Translations under genes and position numbers: made by a program | Shown: positions 2,590 to 46,465 of the stretch, one piece after another | How positions within the stretch are numbered: the stretch's first letter is position 1 | Layout of the letters: each line of letters starts with the position of its first letter | Assembly: GCA_947628085.1 (NCBI GenBank) | Contig: CANQYM010000005.1 | Location: 3,919-67,918 of the forward strand | Direction: 5' to 3' | DNA length: 64,000 nt | Source of the DNA: an uncultured Clostridia bacterium | GTDB taxonomy: Bacteria; Bacillota; Clostridia; TANB77; CAG-508 | The notes under the pieces: model-generated | Database searches by the model: none | Told to the model about the DNA's origin: nothing | What the model saw: only the letters and a program-made list of their open reading frames with translations

Positions 2590-3632
2590 TTTTAAAAGGC
2601 TTAATTACTTTAATTATATTTGTTATAGCTCCATTTTTATTAGGAGTATTAGTAACAAATTTTCTTGAAAAAGAAAAAAATAATTTGTTATTTGCAATAT
2701 TAATTGGTTATTTAGTAGAATTTGCTATATGTGAGTTAATTTCTGTTCCAATGATTTTTTTGGGACGCAGTTTTAATTTTCTATTTGTTACTTATATACT
2801 TATAATTGGAATTTTAATGATTGCATCAATAATTGTAAATAGAAATAATTTTAAAGAAATGTTTTTTACTATAGTAAAAAACTTAAAAAATGTACCTAAA
2901 CTATTAAGTATTATTTGCATAATATTAGTTGTTTTTCAAATTTATATGTTTGTAGTTTACACACATATAGATGATGATGATGCTTTTTATATTGGCTCTA
3001 TTACTACAACCTTGCAAACAAATACATTATATAAATATTCTCCAACTACAGGGGCAACTTCAGGAGAGCACATGGATTTGAGATATAAATTAGCTCCTTT
3101 TCCATTATTTATGGCAATAGTTTCAAAACTAATTAATATGCATCCAGATATAGTATCACATATCATTTTTCCAATTTTTATGTTGCCAGTAATTTATAGT
3201 ATGTATTATCTTTTAGCAAAAGAATTTTTTAATGAAGACATAAAATCATCATTAATTTTTGTAATAATAATTAACATTTTAAATATGTTTAGTGGTTATT
3301 CAGTAAGAACTATTAGTGCATTCTTACTATTTCGTATATGGCAAGGAAAAGCTATACTTGCAAATTTAATGATGCCAGCAATAGTATTATTTATTTTGAA
3401 GGCAAATAAAAATGACTATAAATTTATATATTGCATTTTAATTATAATACTAACTCTAGCTTCAAATATTACAACAACTATGGCGATAGGATTAATACCA
3501 ATAGAAATAGCTGTAATTTTCTTTGTACTAGAATTTTCTGATTTTAAATTTAAAAGATTTTTTATAAATATGGGAAAAGCTATAATTTGTGCTATGCCAA
3601 GTCTTATTTATGGCTTAATATATTTTTTATAA
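2586..3632 (+). CDS. polytopic membrane protein (EpsG/GT-C-like?), unknown function
   Basis: The 348-aa protein is almost entirely TM helices. Its first loop has an acidic cluster (HIDDDDAFYIGS) that resembles the DD/DE motifs of GT-C glycosyltransferases. It overlaps the upstream stop codon by 4 bp (ATGA). Confidence 0.35.
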   Translation: MILKGLITLIIFVIAPFLLGVLVTNFLEKEKNNLLFAILIGYLVEFAICELISVPMIFLGRSFNFLFVTYILIIGILMIASIIVNRNNFKEMFFTIVKNLKNVPKLLSIICIILVVFQIYMFVVYTHIDDDDAFYIGSITTTLQTNTLYKYSPTTGATSGEHMDLRYKLAPFPLFMAIVSKLINMHPDIVSHIIFPIFMLPVIYSMYYLLAKEFFNEDIKSSLIFVIIINILNMFSGYSVRTISAFLLFRIWQGKAILANLMMPAIVLFILKANKNDYKFIYCILIIILTLASNITTTMAIGLIPIEIAVIFFVLEFSDFKFKRFFINMGKAIICAMPSLIYGLIYFL

Positions 3633-3646
3633 TATGAGGAGAAAAA

Positions 3647-4396
3647 ATGTTAAAAGAAAATATAGAAATAGTAAAAAATTCATTTTTAGAATATAAAGGT
3701 GATGGAATGTATATGACTCTATTTTTAATAGGAATGCTATACATTTTATTAAAAGAGAAAAATAAAAAAATAAAATTATTATTTGTTTTATATCCAATAA
3801 TAATAATGTTTATAACCTTAAATCCAATATTTCATAAAATAATTGGAAATCTTTTTGAAGCTACATATTGGAGACTTTTTTGGCTAATACCTCTAATAAT
3901 TGAAATAGCATATTTTTCAGTATTGCTTATAAAAGAGCAAGAGAAAAAAAACCAAGTAGTAGCATGTGTTGGAATTATATTAATAATAATATTTAGTGGA
4001 AAATTTATATATAATCAAAATAATTTTATAAAAACTGGAAATTTATATAAATTACCAGATGAAAGTGTTTTAGTAGCGCAATTAATTGGAGCAGATGAAG
4101 CAGAATATAAAAAGGCAATTGTTCCTGAAACACTTGTAGCACATATTAGACAAATAGATGCTAGCATAGAGTTATTATACAAAAGAGATCCTGAGGGAAA
4201 ATATTTCGAAAATCCTGCATGGAGAGAATTAAATTCGGGAAATGTGGAAGGAATTACTAAAATTGCTAAAGACAAAAAATGTAATTACATTGTATTTAAA
4301 AAAGCAGCTGTTTTAACTGCCAAAATGGAAGATTACGGCTTTGAGAAAATGACTGAAACGGAAAATTATGCAATTTATAAATACATAGAAAAATAA
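3647..4396 (+). CDS. membrane-anchored protein with C-terminal soluble domain, unknown function
   Basis: The 249-aa protein has its own GGAGA RBS. Four N-terminal TM helices are followed by a roughly 120-aa hydrophilic domain. It could act together with the preceding membrane protein. Confidence 0.3.
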   Translation: MLKENIEIVKNSFLEYKGDGMYMTLFLIGMLYILLKEKNKKIKLLFVLYPIIIMFITLNPIFHKIIGNLFEATYWRLFWLIPLIIEIAYFSVLLIKEQEKKNQVVACVGIILIIIFSGKFIYNQNNFIKTGNLYKLPDESVLVAQLIGADEAEYKKAIVPETLVAHIRQIDASIELLYKRDPEGKYFENPAWRELNSGNVEGITKIAKDKKCNYIVFKKAAVLTAKMEDYGFEKMTETENYAIYKYIEK

Positions 4397-6463: not shown

Positions 6464-7438
6464 ATGGAAAATACAAATGTAGATATTTTGCTTGCTACAT
6501 ATAATGGAGAAAAATATTTAAAACCACAGCTAGACAGTATTTTATCTCAAAGTTATTCTAATTTTAGATTACTTATATCAGATGATGGTTCAACAGATAA
6601 AACAAAAAGCATTTTAGAAGAATATAGCAAAAAAGATAATAGAATTGTTTTGTTTTTTCAAAAAGAAAATTTAGGAATAATAAAAAATTTTGAATTTTTA
6701 CTAAAAAAAGTAGAAGCAAAATATTATATGTTTTCAGACCAAGATGACATTTGGAAAGAAAACAAAATAGAAAAATCAATTAAAACTTTAGAAGAAACTG
6801 AAAGCGATTTAGTTTATTCTGATCTAGAAGTCGTTGATGAAAATTTAAAAGTAATTTATGAATCTTATTGGAAACTAAAAGGAATTTATAAAAAAATCAA
6901 AAAATACAATAATTTCAAAAGCTTATACTTAAATAATTTTGTCACTGGTTGTACAATGCTTTCAAAAAAAGATTTAATAAATAAATTTTTACCACTTCCA
7001 AAAACTAGTAAATATGTGCTTCATGATTATTGGATTCCATTAATACTTAGTCAAACAGGAAAAATAACCTACATAGAGGAACCTTTAATAAAATATAGAC
7101 AACATAAAAATAATAAAATAGGTTCTAAAAAAAGGTCTGATGAAATAAAAACTTTAGATGAAATAAGAGCTTTATTTATAGATGTGAAAAAACAACATTT
7201 TAAAACTTTTATTGAAAATGAAGATAAATTTATAGATGAAAATGTTAAAACATTAAATAAGAAAGCCTTAACATATTATGAAATGCTAGAGAAAAAGAAA
7301 AATATTAATTTTAGAAATTGGGTATTATTTTTTAAACTTTACAAATATGAAGAATTTGGCTACACAGTGCAAAACTTTTTAATTTTAAACATTCCAATTT
7401 TAGCAAGATTTTTATTTAAATTTAAGAAAAAATCATAA
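6464..7438 (+). CDS. family 2 glycosyltransferase
   Basis: The GT-A N-terminus reads ILLATYNGEKYL…SDDGSTDKT, with a DxD-like SDQDD. The protein is 324 aa. Confidence 0.8.
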   Translation: MENTNVDILLATYNGEKYLKPQLDSILSQSYSNFRLLISDDGSTDKTKSILEEYSKKDNRIVLFFQKENLGIIKNFEFLLKKVEAKYYMFSDQDDIWKENKIEKSIKTLEETESDLVYSDLEVVDENLKVIYESYWKLKGIYKKIKKYNNFKSLYLNNFVTGCTMLSKKDLINKFLPLPKTSKYVLHDYWIPLILSQTGKITYIEEPLIKYRQHKNNKIGSKKRSDEIKTLDEIRALFIDVKKQHFKTFIENEDKFIDENVKTLNKKALTYYEMLEKKKNINFRNWVLFFKLYKYEEFGYTVQNFLILNIPILARFLFKFKKKS

Positions 7439-7479: not shown

Positions 7480-8778
7480 ATGAGTGATACAGTAATTAAA
7501 ATTTCTAATTTAGTAAAAGAATATAAAATGTTTTCAAGGAAAAAAGATAGACTACTTGAGGCAATTCTACCATTTTACACAAAACATACAACATTTAAAG
7601 CATTAGATAATTTAAATTTGGAAATAAAAAAAGGTGAAGTTTTAGGAATTTTAGGAAAAAATGGGGCAGGAAAATCTACTCTTTTGAAAATGATTACAGG
7701 AGTTGTTTCACCAACCGCTGGAGAAATAGAAGTAAATGGAAAAATAAGTTCACTTCTAGAACTTGGAGCAGCTTTTAACCCAGATTTAACAGGATATGAA
7801 AATATATATCAACATGGACAAGTTATGGGTTTATCAGATGAAGAAATTAAAGCAAAAGAAAAGGAAATAATTGATTTTGCAGATATTGGAGAGCACTTAT
7901 CTCAACCAGTAAAAACATATTCATCAGGTATGTTTGCTCGTTTAGCATTTGCTTGTGCAATTAATGTTGATCCAGATATCTTAATTGTAGATGAAGTTCT
8001 ATCTGTTGGAGATATGGCATTTCAACTTAAATGTTTTAAAAAGTTCGAACAATTTAAAAATAATGGAAAAACAATAATATTTGTAACTCATAATATAAAT
8101 GATGTTATGACAAACTGCAACAGAGTTATTATTTTAGAAAATGGTAGAAAAACTTTTGATGGAACTGTAAAAGATGGAATTGATAGATATAAAAAAATAA
8201 TTGTTGGCTTAAACCCAGATGAAAACATTAAAAATGAAAATGAAGAAATAATAATTTCAAACACAGAAACAATTTCAAATGAGAATAATTTAAATACTTG
8301 GAAAAAGGACTTCAATCAAAATCCAAATATGATTGAATATGGAAATAGAGAAGCAGAAGTTATAGACTATGGAGTTTTTGATAAAGATGGAAATCCGGCA
8401 AATATATTTGACAATGGAGATTATATAACTTTTAAATCTAAAGTAAAGTTCAATAAACAAGTTAAAGAGCCAATTTTTACAGTAACCTTAAAAGACTTTA
8501 GTGGAAAAGATGTTACAGGAACAAATTCAAATATAGAAAAAATTGCAACAGGAACATTTGAAAAAGGAGATATAGCTATTGCAGAGTTTACACAAAAAGT
8601 GCCAGTAGCGCCAGGAAAATATACACTTTCTTTTAGCTGTACAAAATATAATGCAAGAGGTTCTTTAGAAGCTTTAGATAGAAAATATGATGCTTTACTT
8701 GTTGAAGTTATTACAACTAAAAGTACAGTTGGATTAATTAGATTAGATTCAAAAATAAATATAAAAAAAATAAATTAA
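7480..8778 (+). CDS. wzt: ABC transporter ATP-binding protein (Wzt/TagH family) with C-terminal glycan-binding extension
   Basis: Walker A (GKNGAGKST), the ABC signature (YSSGMFARLAFA) and Walker B (ILIVDE) are all present. About 190 extra C-terminal residues form a beta-rich domain like the carbohydrate-binding modules of Wzt proteins. Confidence 0.85.
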   Translation: MSDTVIKISNLVKEYKMFSRKKDRLLEAILPFYTKHTTFKALDNLNLEIKKGEVLGILGKNGAGKSTLLKMITGVVSPTAGEIEVNGKISSLLELGAAFNPDLTGYENIYQHGQVMGLSDEEIKAKEKEIIDFADIGEHLSQPVKTYSSGMFARLAFACAINVDPDILIVDEVLSVGDMAFQLKCFKKFEQFKNNGKTIIFVTHNINDVMTNCNRVIILENGRKTFDGTVKDGIDRYKKIIVGLNPDENIKNENEEIIISNTETISNENNLNTWKKDFNQNPNMIEYGNREAEVIDYGVFDKDGNPANIFDNGDYITFKSKVKFNKQVKEPIFTVTLKDFSGKDVTGTNSNIEKIATGTFEKGDIAIAEFTQKVPVAPGKYTLSFSCTKYNARGSLEALDRKYDALLVEVITTKSTVGLIRLDSKINIKKIN

Positions 8779-8846: not shown

Positions 8847-11800
8847 ATGGAAGATATCTTATCACAATTTGAAAAAAATATAATTTCTTGGTATCCAATA
8901 GAAAAAAATAAAAAAGTTCTAGAAATTGAAAATTCTGAAGAAATAGTAAATGAATTAAAGACAAAAACTTCAGAAATTAAATCAATATCTCTAGAACAAA
9001 TTTGTGATGCACCTGAAAACGATTTTGACTATGTTGTTTTAATAGGTACTTTTGAAAAGTTGAGTAGTAAAGAAGAAATTTTAAATTTATTAAATTTTGC
9101 TAAAAAAAGTTTAAATAAAGATGGAAAAATTCTTCTAGCTATGAAAAATAAATTCGGTATGAAATATTGGACTGGAGAAAGTATTAACAAAGAAAAACCA
9201 TATTTATCAATAGTGTCAGATAAAGAAAACATATTAGGATTAACGAAAATAAAAAACATTTTAAATGATTTAAATTTAAAATTTAAAATTTATTATGCAC
9301 TTCCTGACTATAAATTAACAAATGTTATTTTTACAGATGATTTTATGCCAGATAATGAGAGTATTGATGCAAGAGATTTAAGTTTTGTAGATAAAGAAAA
9401 TGCTTTAAATTTCTCAGAAAGAGATGCTTATAAACAAATATTAAAAGATGACAAAAATTTATTTCCTTTTTTTGCAAATTCATTTTTTATTGAAATTGGA
9501 AATGCTGAAAACTTTGAAGATGTGAAATTTGTTAGTTTTGGGATTACTAGAAAAAAAGAATATAGAATAAAAACAATTATAAAGAATGATTATGTTTATA
9601 AATATGCAAACGATAACGATTTAACACATATAAATAACATTTTTAAAAATATTGATATATTAAGAAAAAATAATATAGAAGTTCTTGGAGAATTTAAAAA
9701 TGACGGAATAGAGAGTATATTTTTAAAACAAGCAAAATCTCTTGATAAAGTTTTAATGGAAATTTATTTTAGAGAAGGATTAGAAAAAACCATTAAAAGT
9801 ATCGAAGAATTTAGAGAAAAGGTATTAAATAAATTATTAAATGAAAAACTAGATGGAAAAGACATATTTGAAAAATATGAAATTAAATTTCCTTTAGAAT
9901 TAAAAGAAAAAATGCATTTTACTAAAAATGGAATGCTAGACCTAATTTTTCAAAATTGCTTGATAAAAGATAATATTCTATATGCTTATGATCAAGAATG
10001 GTATGAGCAAAATGTTCCAGTAGAATTTATATTATATAGAGCTATAATTTATTTTACTGAACTAAGAAATAATGAGAACATAGATAAAATATTTGAATTA
10101 TTAAATTTAAATGAATATGTAGAGTATTTTGAAGTTTTAGAAAATAAAATTCAAGAAGACTTAGTAGATCAAGACATGTGGAATCTTCATCTAGAAACTG
10201 TTAGAGAAATAGGAAATACTAGAGAAATTTTGGATAATTATAAAAAGAGATTATCTTCTGCAAATACTCATATACAAAACTTAGAAAACAATATTAAACA
10301 ATATGAAGAACATATTGAAAACTATAAAAGCGGAATAGAAGGCTTAACGAAACTTGTTAAAGATAAAGATGAAGAACTTGTAAATTACGCAAATCAATTA
10401 AGAGCAATATCTAACTCACTTTCTTGGAAAATAACAAAACCTGTAAGAATCTTTTCATGGATGTTTAATCCTTTTAATGGTGCAACATTTATTGATAGAA
10501 TAATGCCACCTGGTGGAAAAAGAAGAATAGAATATGATAAAAAACAAACAGAAAAGAAATATGCTAAAAAAGTTGAAAATTACTATAAACTATCAGATGA
10601 AGAAACAGCAGAATATTGGAAAGGAATTGATCACAGAAAATATTTAAAATATGAAAAAAATCTTGAAAGAGAAGAAAAAGATCAATTTTCTGATTATGAA
10701 AAATGGATAAAAGAAAATACACCAAGTGACCAAGAAATTGAAAAACAAGAAAAAACAAAATTTAGAAGAAGACCAAAAATAAGCATTGTAGTGCCACTTT
10801 ATAACACAAATACAGAATTTTTTAGAGAATTATTATATACAGTACATTGTCAAACATACAAAAATTGGGAATTATGTCTGGCAGATGGAAGTGAAGAACC
10901 ATTAGAAGAAATTATATCAATGACTAAGAATGATAAAAGAATAAAATATAAATTTTTAGGCGAAAATAAAGGAATTTCTGAAAATACAAATGAAGCAATA
11001 AAAATGGCTACAGGAAAATACATTTCACTTCTAGACCATGATGATATGCTTGATATAAGTGCTTTGTATGAAGTGGTAAAAGTAATAAATGAAAACAAGA
11101 ATGTAGATTTTATATATACAGACGAAGATAAATTTCATTTCTTAGATGCACCATATTATGAACCACATTTTAAACCAGACTTTGCACCAGACACTCTAAG
11201 AGCAAATAATTATATTTGTCATTATAGTGTATTTAAAAAAGAATTAATAGATAAAATAGGTGGATTTAATCACGATTTTGATGGAGCTCAAGATTTTGAT
11301 ATGATTTTAAGAGCAACAGAAAATGCAAAAAATATTGTTCACATTCCTAAAGTATTATATCATTGGAGAGTTCATAAAAATTCTACTGCAATGCAAACAG
11401 AGGCAAAACCGTATGCAATAGAGGCAGGAAGAAGGGCTATAGAAGCACATTTAGCAAGAATAGGTTTAAAGGGAGAAGTAACAAATGGAGTAAATCCTGG
11501 TACTTATCAAATAAAATATGATGTGATTGGAAATCCAAAAATTTCTATTCTTATGCCAAATAAAGATGAAGTAGAAACTTTGAAAACTTGTATAAACTCT
11601 ATTTTTAGTAAAACAACTTATAGCAATTATGAAATTATAATAATAGAAAATAATAGTGAAACAGATGAAATTTTTGATTATTATAAAGAACTATTAAAAT
11701 CTAATAAAATAAAAATTTTAAACTATAATACTGGAAAGTTTATAGAAAATGAAAAAGAGTGCAGTAAAGAATATTCTAAAGAAAATGAAAGAGAAGGGTT

Positions 11801-34712: not shown

Positions 34713-35346
34713 ATGAAAAGTAAAAAAGAAGCAATAGAAATAATAAAAATTTTAAAAGATTATTATAAAGATGCAACTTGTAGTTTGAATTTTTCAACAC
34801 CATTTGAGATGCTAATTTCAGTTATTCTCTCTGCGCAATGCACAGATGAAAGAGTAAATAAAACAACACCAGACCTATTTCAAAAATATGGAACACCTCA
34901 AAAAATGGCAGATGCAGAAATAAAAGATATTGAAAAAATAATTCATCCATGTGGATTCTATAAAAATAAATCAAAAAGCATAAAAGAATGTAGCAAAATG
35001 ATTGTAGAAAAATTTAATCGGTAAAGTACCAGAAACCATGGAAGAATTGCAAAGTTTGCCAGGTGTTGGAAGAAAAACTGCTAATGTTGTTATGTTAGAA
35101 GCTTTTCATAATCCACAAGGAATTGCTGTTGATACTCATGCAAAAAGAATATCAAATAAAGTAGGACTTTCAAATAAAGCAGAGCCAGAAAAAATAGAAC
35201 AAGATTTATTAAAACAAATTCCAAAAGAGTTTTATTATGATGTAAATCATCTATTAGTATGGCATGGAAGAAACATTTGCAGTGCAAGAAATCCAAAATG
35301 TGATAATTGTCCTATAAATAAATATTGTGATTCTTATAAAAAATAA
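34713..35346 (+). pseudogene. nth: endonuclease III (Nth), split by +1 frameshift in this sequence
   Basis: ORF 34713-35024 encodes the HhH N-terminal half. ORF 35038-35346 encodes the C-terminal half, including the [4Fe-4S] CX6CX2CX5C cluster (CSARNPKCDNCPINKYC). Deleting C35019 (AAT-c-GGT) gives …[25 protein letters not shown]…, a continuous roughly 211-aa Nth. Confidence 0.8.
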
Positions 35347-35352
35347 AATAAG

Positions 35353-35393
35353 AAAGCTCAAGTATTAATAAATATTTGAGCTTATTTATTTTT
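35353..35393 (+). terminator. rho-independent terminator after nth
   Basis: The hairpin AAGCTCAAGTATT…AATATTTGAGCTT is followed by ATTTATTTTT. Confidence 0.55.
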
Positions 35394-35479
35394 ACCCTTA
35401 ATTTCAATTGACTTTAAATTAATATTTTTATATAATGCATACGTGATTGAAATTAATTTTTAGGAGGAAATAAAAACAT

Positions 35480-36472
35480 ATGAACTTTATAGAAACTATT
35501 AAAGAAAGAGCAAGAAACAATATTAAAAAAATTGTTTTACCAGAGGCTTCAGATTTAAGAACAATTAAGGCAGCAGAAATTGCATTAAAAGAAAAATATG
35601 CAGAAATTGTTTTAATAGGAAATAAAGAAAAAGTACTAAAGTTAGCAGAAGAAAACAATGTAGATATATCAAATGCAACAATAGTAGATCCTTTAAGTTC
35701 TGAAAAAAGAGAAAACTACGCAAATGAATTATACGAATTAAGAAAAGCAAAAGGAATGACTTTAGAACAAGCAGATGAGCTTATAAAAGATGAAGTATAT
35801 TTTGGAATGATGATGGTCAAAATGGGAGATGGCGATGGACTAGTATCAGGAGCTATTCACTCATCATCAGATACTTTAAGACCAGCACTTCAAATTTTAA
35901 AAACTGCACCAGGAACTAAACTTGTTTCAGCATTCTTTTTAATGGTTGTTCCAAACTGTGAGTATGGAGAAAATGGAGTTTTTGTTTTTGGAGATTGTGG
36001 ATTAAATCAAAATCCAACAGCTGAGGAATTAGCAGAAATAGCACATTCTTCTAAAGAAAGTTTCGAACATTTAGTAGGAAAAGAATCTAGAGTTGCTATG
36101 CTTTCTTATTCTACAAAAGGAAGTGCTAAATCAGACCTTACACAAAAAGTTATTGATGCAACAAATATGGTAAAAGAAAGATATCCAGAAATTAAAGTAG
36201 ATGGAGAACTACAATTAGATTCAGCAATAATTCCAGAAGTTGCTAAAAGTAAAGCACCAGATAGCACAATTGCAGGATATGCAAATACATTAATATTTCC
36301 AGATTTAAATGCAGGAAATATTGGATATAAATTAACTCAAAGATTAGCAAAAGCAGAAGCATATGGACCTCTTTGCCAAGGAATAGCAAGACCAGTAAAT
36401 GATTTATCAAGAGGATGCTCAGCAGAAGATATAGCAGGTGTTATAGCAATAACTGCTGTTCAAGCACAATAA
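35480..36472 (+). CDS. pta: phosphate acetyltransferase
   Basis: The 330-aa protein is class-I Pta similar along its whole length (…GNIGYKLTQRLAKAEAYGPLCQGIARPVNDLSRG…) and lies upstream of ackA. Confidence 0.9.
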   Translation: MNFIETIKERARNNIKKIVLPEASDLRTIKAAEIALKEKYAEIVLIGNKEKVLKLAEENNVDISNATIVDPLSSEKRENYANELYELRKAKGMTLEQADELIKDEVYFGMMMVKMGDGDGLVSGAIHSSSDTLRPALQILKTAPGTKLVSAFFLMVVPNCEYGENGVFVFGDCGLNQNPTAEELAEIAHSSKESFEHLVGKESRVAMLSYSTKGSAKSDLTQKVIDATNMVKERYPEIKVDGELQLDSAIIPEVAKSKAPDSTIAGYANTLIFPDLNAGNIGYKLTQRLAKAEAYGPLCQGIARPVNDLSRGCSAEDIAGVIAITAVQAQ

Positions 36473-36547
36473 AGAGCTTTATTTTAAGTTATTACTTAAA
36501 GTACAAATGAATATAATGAAAATATATTAAACTTTGGGAGGAATAAA

Positions 36548-37747
36548 ATGAAAATCTTAGTAGTAAATTGTGGAAGTTCATCACTAAAATATCAATTAAT
36601 AGATATGCAAGATGAAAAACTTCTAGCAAAAGGAAATTTTGAAAGAATAGGAGAAAAAGAAGCATTTGTTACACATAAAGTTGGAGGAGAAAAATATGTA
36701 ATAAAATCTCCTGTAATGAATCATGAAGAAGCTTTAAAAATTGTTCTTGAACAACTAGTTCATAAAGATTATGGTGTTATAAAAAATTTATCAGAAATTT
36801 CAGCAGTAGGACATAGATTAGTTCATGGTGGAGAGATATTTGATAAATCTGTTATTATAGATGAAGATGTAATTGAAAAATATGCTTCTTGTTCTAGTTT
36901 AGCACCACTTCATAATCCAGCAACAATACTTGGAATAAGGGCATGTCAAAAAGCAATGCCAGGAATTCCAATGGTTGGAGTATTCGATACAGCTTTTCAT
37001 CAAACAATGCCAAAAGAAAATTATTTATATCCTATTCCTTATGAATATTATGAAAAATATGGAATAAGAAAATATGGATTTCATGGAACATCTCATCAAT
37101 ATGTATCAAAAAGATGTGCTGAATTAGTTGGAAAACCAATTGAAAAATTAAAAATAGTAACTTGTCATTTAGGACAAGGTGCATCAATTTGTGCAATAGA
37201 TGGAGGAAAATCTATTAATACTTCTATGGGACTTTCACCTTTAGGAGGAATAGCAATGGTTACTCGTTCAGGAGACTTAGATCCATCAGTTGTTACAGAA
37301 ATAATGGAAAGAGAAAACTTAACTCCTAAAGAAGTAAATACTCTTTTAAATAAAAAATCTGGACTATACGGAATAACAGGGTTAAATCCAGACTTTAGAG
37401 AAATAGAACTTGCATCTTATGAAGATGACAAACCAAAAGCAAAAGTTGCAATAGAATTATTTACCAAAACAATAGCTGAATTTGTTGCAAAATATGCTGT
37501 ATCTTTAAAAGGAATAGATTGTCTAGTGTTTACTGGAGGTATTGGAGAAAATCAAATAAATATTAGAAAAAAAATATGTGAAGACTTAGAATGGATGGGA
37601 GTAAAATTAGATCTAGAAAAAAATAATGTAAGAAGTGAAGAAAGAAAAATTTCAACAGAAGATTCTAAAATACTAACTTATATAATTCCAACAGATGAAG
37701 AAATGGTTATTGCAAGAGATACAAAATCATTAGTAGAAAGTTTATAA
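36548..37747 (+). CDS. ackA: acetate kinase
   Basis: The protein starts MKILVVNCGSSSLKYQL and has the VGHRLVHGG, AFHQTMP, HGTSHQY and E384-equivalent catalytic residues. It is 399 aa. Confidence 0.9.
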   Translation: MKILVVNCGSSSLKYQLIDMQDEKLLAKGNFERIGEKEAFVTHKVGGEKYVIKSPVMNHEEALKIVLEQLVHKDYGVIKNLSEISAVGHRLVHGGEIFDKSVIIDEDVIEKYASCSSLAPLHNPATILGIRACQKAMPGIPMVGVFDTAFHQTMPKENYLYPIPYEYYEKYGIRKYGFHGTSHQYVSKRCAELVGKPIEKLKIVTCHLGQGASICAIDGGKSINTSMGLSPLGGIAMVTRSGDLDPSVVTEIMERENLTPKEVNTLLNKKSGLYGITGLNPDFREIELASYEDDKPKAKVAIELFTKTIAEFVAKYAVSLKGIDCLVFTGGIGENQINIRKKICEDLEWMGVKLDLEKNNVRSEERKISTEDSKILTYIIPTDEEMVIARDTKSLVESL

Positions 37748-37776
37748 AATATTTAAATTTATAGGGGGAAGTTCTT

Positions 37777-38976
37777 ATGAAAGTATTAGTATTAAACTGT
37801 GGAAGCTCATCTTTAAAATGTCAGTTAATAGACATGGAAAAAAACGAAAGAATAATGAAAGGTCATTATGATAGAATAGGTGGTTCAAGATCATCACTTA
37901 GATTTAATGTAAGAGGCAATAAAACAGTTATTGAACACCCTGCTAGAGACTTTGAAGAAGCAATATCAGAAATTTTAAATCTATTAGTAAGCAAAGAATT
38001 TGGAGCAATTGAAAGCTTTGATGAAATTGGAGCAGTAGGACATAGAATAGTTCATGGTGGTGAAAAATTTAAGAATTCAGTTCTTATAGATGATGAAGTT
38101 ATTAAAGCAATTGAAGATTGTGTTACTCTAGCACCACTTCATAATCCAGCTGGACTTGCTGGAATAGATGCTTGTAGAAAATTATTACCAAATACCCCAA
38201 TGGTAGCTGTATTTGATACATCTTTCCATCAAACTATGGAAGAAAAAGCATTTATTTATCAATTGCCATATAAATATTATGAAGACTATAAAATTAGAAA
38301 ATATGGTTTTCATGGAATATCACATAGATATGTAGCAGGAAGAATAGCAGAGTTGCTACATAACGAACATTTAAAAGTAATAAATTGCCATTTAGGACAA
38401 GGTGCATCACTTTGTGCAATAAAAGATGGAAAATCTGTAGATACTACTATGGGATTAACACCTCTTGCTGGAATACCAATGGGAACAAGATCTGGAGATG
38501 TTGATCCATCTATTATTCCAACAGTAATGAAACTATATGATATAAAACCAGATGAAATGCTTAGAATATTAAATAAAGAATCAGGAGCATGGGGCGTATC
38601 TGGAGTTTCAACAGATTTTAGAGATATTGAAAGAACTGCAGCAGCAGGAGATGAAAGATCAATATTAGCTCTAGAAAGTAGAGCATACATAATTGCCCAA
38701 TATATTGCAAAATTTATAGTTACTTTAAATGGTGTTGATGTTATTACTTTTGCTGGTGGTGTAGGTGAAAATGGTTTCGAAGAAAGAGAAAGAATTTGTA
38801 ATTATCTAGAATGTTTTGGTATTAAACTAGATAAGGAAAAAAATAAAATAAGAGGAGAAGAAGCTGAAATTTCAGCAGACAACTCAAAAGCAAAAATATA
38901 TATTGTACCAACAAACGAAGAAATATTAATAGCACAAGATACTTATGAATTAGCTAAAAAGGTAAAAAATAAATAA
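37777..38976 (+). CDS. acetate/propionate kinase family paralog 2
   Basis: The protein starts MKVLVLNCGSSSLKCQL. It is 399 aa, retains all catalytic residues (N7, R91, H180, R241, E384 equivalents), and is about 45% identical to ackA. Confidence 0.8.
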   Translation: MKVLVLNCGSSSLKCQLIDMEKNERIMKGHYDRIGGSRSSLRFNVRGNKTVIEHPARDFEEAISEILNLLVSKEFGAIESFDEIGAVGHRIVHGGEKFKNSVLIDDEVIKAIEDCVTLAPLHNPAGLAGIDACRKLLPNTPMVAVFDTSFHQTMEEKAFIYQLPYKYYEDYKIRKYGFHGISHRYVAGRIAELLHNEHLKVINCHLGQGASLCAIKDGKSVDTTMGLTPLAGIPMGTRSGDVDPSIIPTVMKLYDIKPDEMLRILNKESGAWGVSGVSTDFRDIERTAAAGDERSILALESRAYIIAQYIAKFIVTLNGVDVITFAGGVGENGFEERERICNYLECFGIKLDKEKNKIRGEEAEISADNSKAKIYIVPTNEEILIAQDTYELAKKVKNK

Positions 38977-39070
38977 TATTAAATTTTATTAAAAGATAAT
39001 TTAATATATGAATTAATTATGATATTTCTAAAAGTCAATATAAAATAAGCTTTTTAAAGAAAGGATTTTT

Positions 39071-40258
39071 ATGAAAATATTAGTTTTAAATTGCGGTAGT
39101 TCTTCACTAAAATTTCAACTTATAGATATGAAAAATGAAGAAACAATGGCAAAAGGAAATTTTGAAAGAATAGGTGGAATGAAAACAACTCTTAAATTAA
39201 ATGTAAGAGGAAAAAAAGAGGAATTACTTCACATAGCAAGAGATTTTGATGAAGCAATTGAATTTGTTTTAGAAGTTTTACAAAAGCCAGAATATAAATT
39301 AATAAAAAATTTAAAGGAAATTAAAGCAGTAGGACACAGAATTGTTCATGGCGGAGAAATGTTTAGTTCTTCTGTTTTAATAAATGATGAAGTTATAGAA
39401 GAAATAGAAAAATGCATTGACTTAGCTCCACTTCATAATCCAGCTGGAGTTGCAGGAATAAAAGCAGCTAGAAAAGTTTTACCAAATGTTCCAATGGTTG
39501 CAGTTTTCGACACAGCATTTCATCAAACTATGGAGCCTAAAGCTTATGTATATCAAATACCATATAGATATTATACAAGCTATAAAATTCGTAAATATGG
39601 TTTTCATGGAACAAGTCACAAATATGTAGCTCAAAGAATTTGTGAATTAGAAGGAAAAAACAAAAAATTAATAAATTGCCATTTAGGACAAGGTGCATCA
39701 CTTTGTGCAATAAAAGATGGAAAATCTATAGACACATCTATGGGATTAACACCTCTTGCAGGAATTCCTATGGCAACAAGATGTGGGGATATAGACCCTG
39801 CAATAATACCATATATTATGAAAAGAGATAATTTAGGACCAGAAGATATAGAAGAAGTTCTAAATAAGCAATCAGGAGCATGGGGCGTATCTGGAGTTTC
39901 AACGGACTTTAAAGATATTGAAGACGGATATAATATGGGAGACCAGAGATCTATTTTAACTTTAGATAACCAAGCATATAAAATTGCACAATATATAGGA
40001 GAATATATGATATCTCTTGGCGGATTAGATGTTTTAACTTTTGCTGGTGGAGTTGGAGAAAACGGAATAGAAACAAGAGAAAGAGTTTGCAAATATTTAG
40101 AACCTTTTGGAGCTAAATTAGATTTAAAAGCAAATAAAGTAAGAGGAAAAGAAGTTTGCATTTCTGCTCCAGATTCTAAAATAAAAATTTATGTTATTCC
40201 AACAAATGAAGAATTAATGATAGCAAAAGAAACTTATGAAATTGTAAATAATAAGTAA
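39071..40258 (+). CDS. acetate/propionate kinase family paralog 3
   Basis: The protein starts MKILVLNCGSSSLKFQL and is 395 aa. It is most similar to paralog 2 (SGAWGVSGVSTDF[KR]DIE, NCHLGQGASLCAIKDGKS). Confidence 0.8.
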   Translation: MKILVLNCGSSSLKFQLIDMKNEETMAKGNFERIGGMKTTLKLNVRGKKEELLHIARDFDEAIEFVLEVLQKPEYKLIKNLKEIKAVGHRIVHGGEMFSSSVLINDEVIEEIEKCIDLAPLHNPAGVAGIKAARKVLPNVPMVAVFDTAFHQTMEPKAYVYQIPYRYYTSYKIRKYGFHGTSHKYVAQRICELEGKNKKLINCHLGQGASLCAIKDGKSIDTSMGLTPLAGIPMATRCGDIDPAIIPYIMKRDNLGPEDIEEVLNKQSGAWGVSGVSTDFKDIEDGYNMGDQRSILTLDNQAYKIAQYIGEYMISLGGLDVLTFAGGVGENGIETRERVCKYLEPFGAKLDLKANKVRGKEVCISAPDSKIKIYVIPTNEELMIAKETYEIVNNK

Positions 40259-40290
40259 AGAGAATTGTTTTTACAATTCTCTTTTTTATT
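40257..40290. terminator. bidirectional rho-independent terminator between convergent ack paralog 3 and rqcH
   Basis: The hairpin AAGAGAATTGT-TTTT-ACAATTCTCTT is followed by TTTTTTATTTT, and the reverse complement is also T-rich. Confidence 0.7.
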
Positions 40291-42001
40291 TTACTATAAT
40301 TGTTTTAAAATTACTGTAAATAACCATTCCAGGTTTACTTCCAGAAAGCTTTTTTACAAACTTAGAATAGCAATAATCAACAGAAACGTTTAATGAATTA
40401 TAAGCTTTACTATTTTCTTTTGCAATGCAAGCACATTTAAATAAAACATTTTCAGGAATTTCATCTAAGTCTAAATTTTCAGGATTTCTCAAAAGCACAT
40501 GACTTCCGTGTATTTTTTGTGTATGAAACCAAACATCATTAGGATTTGCAAGCTTTAAACTTATATGGTCATTTTGAATATTGTTTTTTCCAATATAAAT
40601 TGTAAATCCTTCAAAATTAATTTTTTCAAGTTCCATAGTGTAACTAGTAGATATTTTTTTAGTAGAAATTTTATTTTTTTTGTTAATATTTTTTCTGGTA
40701 GCAATATTTTCAGAAATTTCTTCGTAGACTTCATTTATATCATTAACATTTTTTGCATTGCTTAAATTAAAAACAATGCTTTCAATATAAGTTAATTCTT
40801 TTTCAGCTTCCTTTTTCTGCTCTGTAACAATAGTAAGAGCATTTTTTAATTTATTATATTTTTTAAAATATTTTTCAATATTTTTTTGCACAGAAAAACT
40901 CTTATCTAAAGGTATTGTTATTAAATGATTTTCATCATAATAATTTTCCACTGTAATTTCAGAAAGATTTGAATCTGAGTCTATTTTATAAAGATTTGCA
41001 GTAAGAAGCTCTCCGTACAATCTAAATTTATCTTTTTCTTCACATTCTTTAAGTTTAGAATTTATATTTTCAATTTTTTTATTAACTTTTTTAAGTGCAT
41101 CAGAAACAACTTTAAGCAAGCTATTTCTTGAATTAATAAATAATGCATTTGATTCTTTATTATAATAAAAGTCATCTAAAAAGAAATTTATATTTGTAGA
41201 TGAATTAAATTCACTATTATTTGCCTCTTGATTTAAAACTATCGTATAATCTTTTTCATTTATTAGTTTACAAGAAACATTTAAAGTTCCCATATTTTGT
41301 ATTAATTCATTTATATAATTAAATAAATTTTCTAAATTTGCAGAAGAAAAATCTGAGTCATTTATATTTAATATTTTTAAAGTTTCTTTTACAAAAGGTT
41401 TGCTAAAACCAATAAATTTACTTGTAAGAAGACTGGTTAAAGATTTTGTATTAGATGTGTTTACAAAATTTATGAAGTCATCTTTACTTATGTTTAAAAA
41501 GCTAGTTTTATTTATTGGAGTAAAAACATATTCATGTGCTGGAAGAAGTTCTCTTGTTGTATTATCAAAATGTTTTAATGTGTCAATTATAATGTTATTT
41601 TCATTTGTTAAAATAATATTACTTTGTCTACTCATAATTTCAACAAATAATTTTCTTAAAACTAAATCATTTAAGTCATTATAACATTCAAAATCTATTT
41701 CAACTGTTCTTTCTAAATCGTAGTTAGAAATATTAACAATTTTTCCATTAATTAAATATTTTCTAAGAAGCATACAATAATTGTAGGCATTTTGAGGATT
41801 TGGTTTAGAATGATTTGTTAAAGAAATTCTACAAAATTCTGGATTTGCAGAAATGTTTAAAGCGTAATTTATTCCATTATTATAAAGACCTAAAACAATT
41901 TCATTTTTATTAGGTTCAAAAACTTTATTTACTTTTGCTCCAATAATAGTATTTTTAAGTTCTGTTACAACAGATTTTGTAATGAATCCATCAAAAGCCA
42001 T
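40286..42001 (-). CDS. rqcH: ribosome quality control protein RqcH / FbpA-NFACT family
   Basis: The 571-aa protein has the N-terminal MAFDGFITKSVVTELK…G…VNKVFEP motif typical of Rqc2/NEMF/FbpA, a central coiled coil, and a C-terminal NFACT-R-like region. Confidence 0.8.
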   Translation of the reverse strand: MAFDGFITKSVVTELKNTIIGAKVNKVFEPNKNEIVLGLYNNGINYALNISANPEFCRISLTNHSKPNPQNAYNYCMLLRKYLINGKIVNISNYDLERTVEIDFECYNDLNDLVLRKLFVEIMSRQSNIILTNENNIIIDTLKHFDNTTRELLPAHEYVFTPINKTSFLNISKDDFINFVNTSNTKSLTSLLTSKFIGFSKPFVKETLKILNINDSDFSSANLENLFNYINELIQNMGTLNVSCKLINEKDYTIVLNQEANNSEFNSSTNINFFLDDFYYNKESNALFINSRNSLLKVVSDALKKVNKKIENINSKLKECEEKDKFRLYGELLTANLYKIDSDSNLSEITVENYYDENHLITIPLDKSFSVQKNIEKYFKKYNKLKNALTIVTEQKKEAEKELTYIESIVFNLSNAKNVNDINEVYEEISENIATRKNINKKNKISTKKISTSYTMELEKINFEGFTIYIGKNNIQNDHISLKLANPNDVWFHTQKIHGSHVLLRNPENLDLDEIPENVLFKCACIAKENSKAYNSLNVSVDYCYSKFVKKLSGSKPGMVIYSNFKTIIVK

Positions 42002-44415: not shown

Positions 44416-46465
44416 ATGGTAGATTTAGAAAAAAATATACAATACATAAAAGGAGTAGGACCTAATCGTGCTACTCTTTTAAATAAATTAGGTATTTTTT
44501 CTTTAAAAGACCTTATAACTTATTTCCCACGTGAATATGAAGATAGAGGAAAACCCAAAAAAATTGCTGAAGTTGTAGATGGTGATGAAGCTTTAATTTA
44601 TGCATATCCAGTTGGAAGAGTGAATGAAGTAAGAATTAGAAAAAATCTTATGATAAGTAAATTAATAGTTAGAGATGAAACTGGAAGTATGCTTGTTACT
44701 TGGTATAATAAATCTTATTTAAAAAACATTTTTAAGCCAAATGTAGAATATAAATTTTATGGGAAAATATCTAGAAAATATGGAAGACCAGAAATGCAAG
44801 AGCCTGTATATGAAGAAAAAATTTTTGAAAAAAATACAGGTAAAATAATTCCAATATATCCTCTTACATATAACTTATCTCAAAATGTTATTAGAAAAAT
44901 AATAGAAAGTGGATTAAATGAAGTTAAAGGAAAGCTAGATGAAACTTTACCAGAATACATATTAAAAAAATATAATTTATATGATTATAATACTGCAATT
45001 CATCAAATACATTTTCCAGAAACTTTTGAAAGTTTTAGTTTAGCTAAAAAAAGATTAGTTTTTGAGGAACTTTTTTCTATGCAACTTGCGCTTTTAAGCT
45101 TAAAAAATAAATATGAAATTAAAAAGCAAGGAATTGCATTTAGTAAAGAAGCAAAAATGTCAGAAATAATAGATAAATTGCCATTTAAACTAACAAAAGC
45201 ACAGCTTAGAGTTCTAGAAGAAATAGATAAGGACATGGAAAGTGATAAACCAATGAATAGATTAATGCAAGGAGATGTTGGCTCTGGAAAAACAGTTGTT
45301 GCATTAATTTCTGCATATAAAGCAGTAAAATCAGGTTATCAAGCTGTTATAATGGCACCAACTGCAATACTTGCATCACAACATTTAGAAAGCTTTAATG
45401 AAATTTTAAAAGAAACTGGAATAAGATGCGAGCTTTTAATTAGCGGAATTTCTAAAAAGAAAAAAGAAGATATATTAAAACGATTAGAAGATGGAGAAAT
45501 AGATATTTTAATAGGAACACATGCAGTTTTAGAAGAAAATGTTGTGTTTAAAAATTTGGGATTAGTAGTTACAGATGAGCAACATAGATTTGGAGTTAGA
45601 CAAAGAAGCATAATAGTAGAAAAAGGAACAAATCCAGATGTTTTAGTTATGACAGCAACACCAATTCCAAGGACTTTAGCATTAATTCTATATGGAGATT
45701 TAGACATATCTATTATTGATGAGCTTCCTCCAAACAGAAAAAAGATAGAAACGTATGCTGTTACAAAAGGAATGGAACAAAGGGTAAATAACTTTATTAC
45801 TAAAAATATTGAAGAAGGTAGACAATGCTACATAGTTTGCCCATTAGTAGAAGAAAATGAAGAAATAAATGCAAAATCTGTAATGGAGATTTATGAAAAT
45901 TATAAAAATAATGTTTTTCCACAGTTTAGGGTAGAATATTTGCATGGTAAAATGAGACCAAAAGAAAAAGACGAAATAATGGAAAGATTTAAAAATGGAG
46001 AAATAGACATTTTAGTTTCTACTACTGTTATAGAAGTTGGTGTAAATGTTCCAAATAGCAACATTATGGTTATTCAAAATGCAGAAAGATTTGGGTTAGC
46101 TCAACTTCATCAATTAAGAGGAAGAGTTGGACGTCGGAGAATATCAGTCTTATTGTATTTTAAAATATCAAGGAAATTCACAAATCATAAGAGAAAGAAT
46201 GAAAGTTATTTCAAGCACAAATGATGGATTTGTTATTTCTGAAAAAGACTTAGAACTAAGAGGTTCAGGAGAATTTTTTGGAACAAGGCAACATGGTATA
46301 CCAGAATTTAAAATCGCTAATTTATTTGAAGATGTGGGAATGTTAAAACAGGTTCAAGGCGTTGTGTTAGAAATAATAGACAAAGATCCACTACTTGAAA
46401 AAGAAGAGAATAAATTACTAAAAAAATTAGTTGATGATAAATTTAAAGATAGAATAGAAATATAA
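44416..46465 (+). pseudogene. recG: ATP-dependent DNA helicase RecG, split by +1 frameshift near the C-terminus in this sequence
   Basis: The N-terminal wedge domain (MVDLEKNIQYIKGVGPNRATLLNKLGI) and helicase motifs (GDVGSGKT, DEQHRFG, QLRGRVGR) are present. ORF1 ends …GRVGRRRISV…*. Deleting C46135 (CGT-c-GGA) gives …RGRVGRGEYQSYCILKYQG… and a continuous roughly 682-aa RecG. Confidence 0.85.

Follow-up and report, generated by a model that had tools for sequence, protein, structure and literature searches.

A conserved pta locus with three acetate kinase paralogs in an uncultured lineage of gut Clostridia

Introduction

Genomes with more than one acetate kinase (ACK) gene are well documented: multiple ACK genes have been found in 320 species of 135 genera, with three of them in Lactobacillus sakei (Chan et al., 2014, PMC3956926). 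The ackA1 and ackA2 genes of Lactococcus lactis are neighbours whose products are 68% identical, belong to two monophyletic types and form homodimeric isozymes. Their kcat values are 8-fold and their Km values for acetate 12-fold apart, AckA1 being the enzyme of high turnover and AckA2 that of high acetate affinity, and the two are complementary at high and low acetate (PMC3956926). Here we consider a locus in which the phosphate acetyltransferase gene pta is followed by three acetate kinase genes, ack1, ack2 and ack3. It lies in a 64,000-nucleotide stretch of DNA from an uncultured Clostridia bacterium (assembly GCA_947628085.1, contig CANQYM010000005.1, forward-strand positions 3,919 to 67,918), the whole of which was analysed and is called the window below. 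The premise of an initial annotation of the window, that Firmicutes normally carry a single ackA, was too strong given the species and genus counts just cited.

Of the systems known, the L. lactis isozymes come closest to the pta-ack1-ack2-ack3 operon, in which there are three kinase copies and pta is joined to them. As in L. lactis, the paralogs are neighbouring and co-directional and of similar divergence (68% identity there; 65% and 50–52% here), each type is monophyletic across its lineage, and the catalytic and substrate residues are kept while ATP-site positions differ, the equivalent of Ile332 being Val or Ile in both systems. Unlike in L. lactis, there are three copies instead of two, the host belongs to an uncultured, reduced-genome lineage of gut Clostridia, and a single operon with pta is predicted, whereas a terminator and separate promoters lie between the L. 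lactis genes. With the canonical pta-ackA operon of Clostridia and other Firmicutes, the locus shares the order of pta and then ack, and it departs from that operon in the triplication of the kinase, in Gln211 in all copies, and in Val (ack1) or Ala (ack3) at the conserved Gly239. We put the probability at roughly 60% that the three proteins are acetate kinase isozymes differing in turnover, in affinity and perhaps in nucleotide use. Thus viewed, the locus most likely represents the known type of acetate kinase isozyme pair enlarged to three enzymes, and not a new chemistry.

Family assignment and the acyl side of the active site

The four genes lie one after another on the plus strand. The first, pta (35480–36472), encodes a short-form phosphate acetyltransferase of 330 amino acids, which scores 396 bits against TIGR00651 (cut-off 311) and 415 bits against NF007233 (cut-off 310) and matches PF01515 over its full length. 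It is followed by ack1 (36548–37747, 399 amino acids), ack2 (37777–38976, 399 amino acids) and ack3 (39071–40258, 395 amino acids), which belong to the ortholog groups referred to below as G1, G2 and G3, respectively. In this order, the three kinases match PF00871 end to end with 500, ~464 and 480 bits (cut-off 22) and the ackA model TIGR00016 with 501, 469 and 481 bits (cut-off 293), and all of them align end to end with the solved AckA structures used for comparison, those of Thermotoga maritima (2iir) and Methanosarcina thermophila (1g99), at E-values of 1e-123 to 1e-145. The list of open reading frames (ORFs) and the family profiles confirm that pta is followed by three co-directional, full-length genes of the acetate kinase family, 395–399 amino acids long, as first annotated. 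Amino acid identity is 50% between ack1 and ack2, 52% between ack1 and ack3, and 65% between ack2 and ack3, in line with the annotated closer relationship of copies 2 and 3. Identity to T. maritima AckA is much the same for all three groups (0.56 for G1, 0.55 for G2 and 0.54 for G3), and a protein database search with ack2 returned only close orthologs (at least 84% identity), annotated as acetate kinase. The description of copy 1 as the canonical AckA is open to doubt: its family score is only slightly higher than those of the other two, and it bears the rarest loop residue, Val239, which occurs in 0 of 127 family representatives.

For residue-level comparison, numbering follows M. thermophila AckA and was verified against the 1g99 sequence; ortholog counts refer to 34 G1, 40 G2 and 34 G3 sequences, and family frequencies to 127 full-length representatives from an exhaustive search. 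All three copies have N7, S10–12, K14, R91, D148, H180, H208, R241, D283, G331, E334 and E384, and every complete ortholog in the three groups has these catalytic and phosphoryl-transfer residues. The earlier observation that copies 2 and 3 keep every catalytic residue, meaning the N7, R91, H180, R241 and E384 equivalents, was therefore correct. The acetate pocket, formed by V93, L122, F179 and P232, is identical in the three window copies, is kept in at least 94% of each group and equals the family consensus (V in 100, L in 115, F in 103 and P in 122 of the representatives); in M. thermophila AckA, the binding of acetate has been ascribed to Val93, Leu122 and Pro232 (PMC4390882). The catalytic residues and the pocket are the same as in the T. 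maritima and M. thermophila enzymes. On the sequence criteria of profile, catalytic residues and acetate pocket, the three proteins are assigned to the acetate kinase family (EC 2.7.2.1), and we predict that each of them works as an acetate kinase whose acetate pocket is unchanged, activity and acetate specificity being deduced from these same features.

The pocket residues bear directly on the functional proposal made in the initial annotation, namely sub-functionalisation by acyl chain, in which one or two of the copies would be kinases for propionate, butyrate or branched-chain acyl groups, with a role in the fermentation of amino acids. The three copies do share the ASKHA acetokinase fold family with TdcD, PduW and Buk, acetate kinases generally have some propionate activity, and long retention of diverged paralogs is compatible with different substrates. 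There are also second-shell changes near the pocket: ack2 has Ile in place of Thr at 182, two residues from H180 and three from F179, and residue 234, which adjoins P232 and L233, is Gly, Ala and Ala in copies 1, 2 and 3 and Glu in most of the family. Against these points, Ile182 is common among ordinary family members, as are Ala and Gly at 234, and the pocket itself, which the annotation had singled out for inspection, does not vary between the three groups. At position 93, all three copies have Val where E. coli TdcD has Ala. The scores against the propionate kinase model for TdcD (NF009045; 401, 393 and 401 bits) all fall below its equivalog cut-off of 580, and those against the butyrate kinase model for Buk (TIGR02707; 70, 55 and 53 bits) below its equivalog cut-off of 289; identity to E. 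coli TdcD is 41–43% for the three copies, and none of them falls into the tree group of TdcD described below. The sole phosphotransacylase in the operon is a typical Pta, and the gene context contains no tdc, pdu or ptb genes. Because the pocket is identical and the TdcD and Buk scores lie far below the cut-offs, the sequence basis for the acyl-chain hypothesis is removed, and we consider it unlikely, although enzymology could still overturn its rejection. What survives of the sub-functionalisation proposal is its general form, which is plausible because the long-term retention of diverged copies, each with its own fixed residues, fits it.

The nucleotide side of the active site

G1, G2 and G3 have different fixed residues at 67 positions, and those in the active site appear to lie on its nucleotide and phosphoryl side, residue 239 of LOOP3 being the clearest of them. 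This residue is Val in 34/34 G1, Gly in 40/40 G2 and Ala in 34/34 G3 sequences, compared with Gly in 109, Ser in 7, Ala in 6 and Val in none of the 127 representatives. A sister group of metagenome-assembled genomes (MAGs), which has pta with two ack copies, carries Gly at 239 in its copy A and Cys or Val in its copy B; since the sister lineage splits in like manner at this position, enzymes with and without Gly239 occur side by side throughout the wider clade. The Gly239 of M. thermophila AckA reaches into the active site and forms a hydrogen bond with Asn211, which contacts the beta-phosphate of ATP, and the G239A replacement cuts specific activity ~14-fold and makes the enzyme relatively more active with TTP and CTP (PMC4390882). 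At this Asn211 position (PHOSPHATE2), Gln is found in every kinase copy of the lineage and its two-copy sister group, but in only 2 of the 127 representatives. Gln211 in all copies and the group-fixed Val, Gly or Ala at 239 are the only two rare features that we found.

Other differences near the nucleotide are of a more ordinary kind. Residue 15 of PHOSPHATE1 is Tyr, Cys and Phe in ack1, ack2 and ack3 (Phe in 56, Tyr in 52 and Cys in 6 of the representatives); residue 332 of the ADENOSINE motif, in the ATP site, is Ile in G1 and Val in G3; and residue 285 of LOOP4, which stacks on the adenine ring and is Arg or Lys, is Lys in ack3 and in 22/34 G3 sequences overall. The possibility that ack2 is a functionally deviant copy, suggested by Y15C, E32D, T182I and S227T, all at positions conserved in a narrow first sample, was dropped when these proved to be ordinary variants among the 127 representatives (Ile182, for example, occurs in 22).

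The rare residues at 239 and 211 raise the question of whether the copies are specialised by nucleotide or phosphoryl donor, differing in the nucleoside diphosphates and triphosphates (NDPs and NTPs) or other donors that they use, with acetyl phosphate regenerating NTPs in an NDP-kinase-like manner in a reduced genome. Residue 239 is the sole rare group-fixed change in the active site, and it stands on the likewise rare Gln211. Wild-type M. thermophila AckA uses all NTPs, and both G239A and G239S raise its relative activity with TTP and CTP (PMC4390882); moreover, glycolytic kinases supply the ndk function in mycoplasmas that have no ndk, according to Pollack (2002) as cited in PMC6609329. The main determinant of NTP selection identified in PMC4390882, Gly331, is invariant in all copies, however, and the authors of that study concluded that changes at Asn211 and Gly239 lower activity without substantially changing NTP selection, the effect being modest. 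We therefore regard nucleotide or donor specialisation as distinctly unlikely. Its more specific form, in which the kinases have split on the nucleotide side and not the acyl side, such that Val, Gly or Ala at 239 on the shared Gln211 would confer different NDP/NTP preferences replacing or supplementing ndk, seems to us highly unlikely.

Conservation, phylogeny and selection

Relatives of the locus were found by a scan of one genome per species. The closest are uncultured Clostridia MAGs from the gut of rabbit, ruminants, chicken, mouse and human, several of which are named Candidatus Scatovivens. Scatovivens faecipullorum has been placed in the GTDB order TANB77, family CAG-508 (PMC13106387), and TANB77 has been characterised as an uncultured order with reduced genome sizes (PMC11680825); the G+C content of the window is 22–30%. 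The complete order pta-ack1-ack2-ack3 is present in 30 species-level genomes, and 6 more loci are cut by contig ends but consistent with it. The exact ack2 protein also occurs on metagenome contigs in ENA, with the gene order unchanged.

The nearest relative (L039) is 92–100% identical over the four proteins. A patch of ~170 nucleotides in its ack1 (~7060–7235, homologous to window positions 36837–37007) has only 68–70% identity to every other ack1, while the remainder of the gene is 96.5% identical to that of the window; because of this patch, ack1 is 92% identical between the window and L039, versus 97–100% for pta, ack2 and ack3. Gene conversion between paralogs was considered and rejected as its source, as the patch lies in L039 and not in the window and is 67–69% identical to ack2 and ack3 of L039 itself, matching neither. 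It has the appearance of a short tract acquired by recombination with a more distant homolog.

In a neighbor-joining tree of the paralogs, bootstrap support was 100 for G1, 87 for G2, 100 for G3 and 100 for G2 and G3 together (of 100). A wider tree of 166 sequences included the 127 family representatives, AckA and TdcD of E. coli, and the two enzymes of solved structure. There, the copies of the lineage together with those of the two-copy sister group formed an exclusive clade in 34/40 replicates, and G1, G2, G3 and G2 with G3 were each recovered in 40/40; E. coli AckA and TdcD fell into a separate clade of 11 members without any window copy. Because all copies form an exclusive clade, the paralogs arose by duplication inside the lineage. 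Horizontal acquisition of ack2 or ack3, or their origin from a gene of the propionate kinase type, is rejected on the basis of the same clade. As the trees read, the separation of G1 from the ancestor of G2 and G3 is the first duplication, followed by that of G2 from G3. The grouping of G1 with the sequences labelled SB and L053 reached only 53/100 and 14/40, so the root of the first duplication relative to the two copies of the sister group is weakly supported; neighbor-joining trees are adequate for grouping, not for rooting this first duplication. The initial annotation had called for a phylogeny as a check on recent, strain-specific duplication, and the outcome is that the copies are old and make up three ortholog groups across species-level genomes.

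The median pairwise ratio of nonsynonymous to synonymous substitution rates (dN/dS; Nei-Gojobori, pairs with dS <1.5) was 0.164 for G1, 0.126 for G2 and 0.134 for G3. No copy has relaxed constraint or marked acceleration, and each group is under similar purifying selection. These values of 0.13–0.16, together with the maintenance of three ortholog groups in about 30–40 species-level genomes, bear out the view that copies 2 and 3 are not decaying duplicates.

The same data can be set against a simple dosage or redundancy explanation, in which the three enzymes do the same job thrice and are kept for high flux through Pta and Ack as the main source of ATP. The identical catalytic and pocket make-up of all copies would suit this explanation, as would their single predicted transcription unit, the reduced genomes of a lineage that is presumably fermentative (PMC11680825), and the fact that ack3 is lost or frameshifted in some species, as if partly dispensable. 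Copies maintained for dosage are usually young or homogenised, whereas those seen here are 50–65% identical and form three groups across a family-level radiation, have group-fixed residues that include one in a functionally tested active-site loop, and have equally low dN/dS in each group. Dosage as the reason for three copies thus appears improbable to us.

Organization of the predicted transcription unit

The genes are separated by spacers of 75 bp (pta-ack1), 29 bp (ack1-ack2) and 94 bp (ack2-ack3), and a purine-rich stretch resembling a ribosome-binding site precedes all four starts (AGGAGG, GGGAGG, AGGGGGAAG, and a weaker AAAGGA before ack3), which agrees with the annotation of separate ribosome-binding sites and of 29- and 94-bp spacers for the kinase copies. 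Promoter and terminator calls are consensus matches and denote putative sites. The best promoter-like match of the region is a sigma-70-type site on the plus strand at 35408–35436 (TTGACT, a 17-nucleotide spacer and TATAAT; 11/12 consensus matches), ~45 bp upstream of the pta start. Upstream of it, a plus-strand terminator-like hairpin at 35354–35383, with a 13-pair stem followed by the T-run ATTTATTTTT, would close the preceding nth gene and mark the upstream boundary of the unit. At the other end, a bidirectional terminator-like hairpin (40257–40284; 12-pair stem, T-runs on both strands) lies between ack3 and a convergent NFACT-family gene (40286–42001, minus strand). The interior of pta-ack1-ack2-ack3 has no terminator-like site on the plus strand, and the promoter-like matches there reach only 9/12, which is chance level. 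A single pta-ack1-ack2-ack3 transcript would be the simplest reading for this genome.

Two kinds of regulatory element were looked for around the unit. An operator of the CcpA cre type (TGWAANCGNTNWCA, up to 2 mismatches) was matched neither upstream of pta nor in the spacers and was set aside; over the whole window, 84 cre-like matches were found versus 65 ± 10 expected, barely above chance. Scans of the whole 64 kb found no tRNA gene and no Rfam family above its gathering score, so no riboswitch or leader RNA is recognised at the operon.

Among the relatives, the layout is looser than in the window. The pta-ack1 spacer ranges from 19 to 807 bp, that between ack1 and ack2 from 22 to 439 bp with one locus having a 6.3-kb insertion, and that between ack2 and ack3 from an overlap to 1.6 kb. 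Genes are inserted among the ack copies upstream of ack2 in L005, L007, L009 and L042 (at ~8000 in these loci), at 8200–9400 in L037 and L038, and at 9823–10971 in L019. One inserted block, between ack1 and ack2, consists of ~6 kb of membrane-protein genes, one of them on the opposite strand, and another type of insertion is a single ORF between ack2 and ack3. Because whole genes, some on the opposite strand, separate the copies in some species, co-transcription is not a conserved requirement.

This looseness also bears on a heteromeric or regulatory arrangement, in which the paralogs would heterodimerise or one copy would chiefly have a regulatory or acetyl-phosphate-sensing role. Acetate kinases are dimeric (the L. 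lactis enzymes being homodimers, PMC3956926), and the three genes are co-located and probably co-transcribed. Yet the activities of the L. lactis isozymes are additive, and the authors concluded that they are isozymes and not subunits (PMC3956926); the insertions that part the copies in several relatives argue that strict co-expression is unneeded; and the full set of catalytic residues in each copy argues against a purely regulatory one. We give this arrangement very little credence.

Three acetate kinase isozymes as the favoured explanation

The presence and conservation of the genes, the purifying selection on them, their duplication within the lineage and the identities of their residues are the observations from which the isozyme model starts. 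The locus is best explained, in our view, as an operon for fermentation that has been conserved in an uncultured lineage of gut Clostridia with reduced genomes (Scatovivens-like, GTDB TANB77/CAG-508). In this operon, Pta would convert acetyl-CoA to acetyl phosphate, and three anciently duplicated kinases would interconvert acetyl phosphate and ADP with acetate and ATP. The copies would most likely differ in kcat, in Km for acetate or acetyl phosphate, and/or in nucleotide usage. In L. lactis, it is in this manner that AckA1 and AckA2 make acetate metabolism robust to large changes in acetate concentration.

Several points weigh against this model. The proposed kinetic differences are drawn from the analogy with L. 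lactis and from one mutagenised residue in a distant homolog, and with Gln instead of Asn at 211, the effect of a substitution at 239 may differ from that in M. thermophila AckA. Most of the other group-specific residues (Y15C/F, E32D, T182I and S227T) represent ordinary family variation and may be neutral. With neither a terminator nor a convincing promoter between the copies, differential regulation is not evident in this genome, unlike for the L. lactis pair. In addition, ack3 is the least stable of the copies: L007, L042 and the most divergent locus, L035, have no ack3 beside ack2, and the gene is frameshifted in L019, L030, L031 and L034. Some of these frameshifts may be assembly errors, L019 and L034 being frameshifted in other genes too.

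TANB77/CAG-508 is a widespread gut clade recently linked to the response to cancer immunotherapy (PMC11680825). That a gene-shedding lineage keeps three acetate kinases under purifying selection would place the handling of acetate and acetyl phosphate at the centre of its physiology, and this may aid the design of culture conditions, for instance with respect to acetate concentration. With Val, Gly and Ala occurring naturally at residue 239 and Gln211 common to all, the three enzymes also offer a ready-made set for comparing how this loop affects turnover and nucleotide use. As acetate kinase isozymes are already documented and common, the locus adds to a familiar theme without opening a new one.

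Neighbouring genes and other features of the window

The neighbours of the operon in the window are nth, the NFACT-family gene and pgi. The nth gene (endonuclease III) is split by a frameshift at 34713–35346 into ORFs at 34713–35024 and 35038–35346, whereas it is uninterrupted (220 amino acids) in the relative L037 at 3017–3679. The split is also found in two ENA assemblies, with ~4.7x coverage, and could reflect either a genuine pseudogene or an assembly error common to them. Further downstream, recG (44416–46465) is apparently split as well: its main ORF (44416–46224) has an odd tail, and a separate 88-amino-acid ORF represents the C-terminal domain of RecG (PF19833); this ORF lies at 18423–18689 in L076, which corresponds to window positions ~46199–46465.

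A large non-ribosomal peptide synthetase is encoded at 52233–59691, with the domain order C-A-T-C-A-T and a terminal reductase-like domain, and has a frameshift near 54589–54668, within the first adenylation domain. Such an enzyme is unexpected in a reduced genome. We take its architecture to resemble that of the dipeptide-aldehyde synthetases of gut Clostridia. At the other end of the window, positions 1–28430 hold a long co-directional cluster of genes for glycosyltransferases, membrane proteins, an epimerase and ABC-transporter-like proteins, presumably for the synthesis of a cell-envelope polysaccharide. Nearly every gene of the 64 kb is on the plus strand, and GC skew is positive in all 2-kb intervals but one, that at 40001–42000, where it is close to zero.

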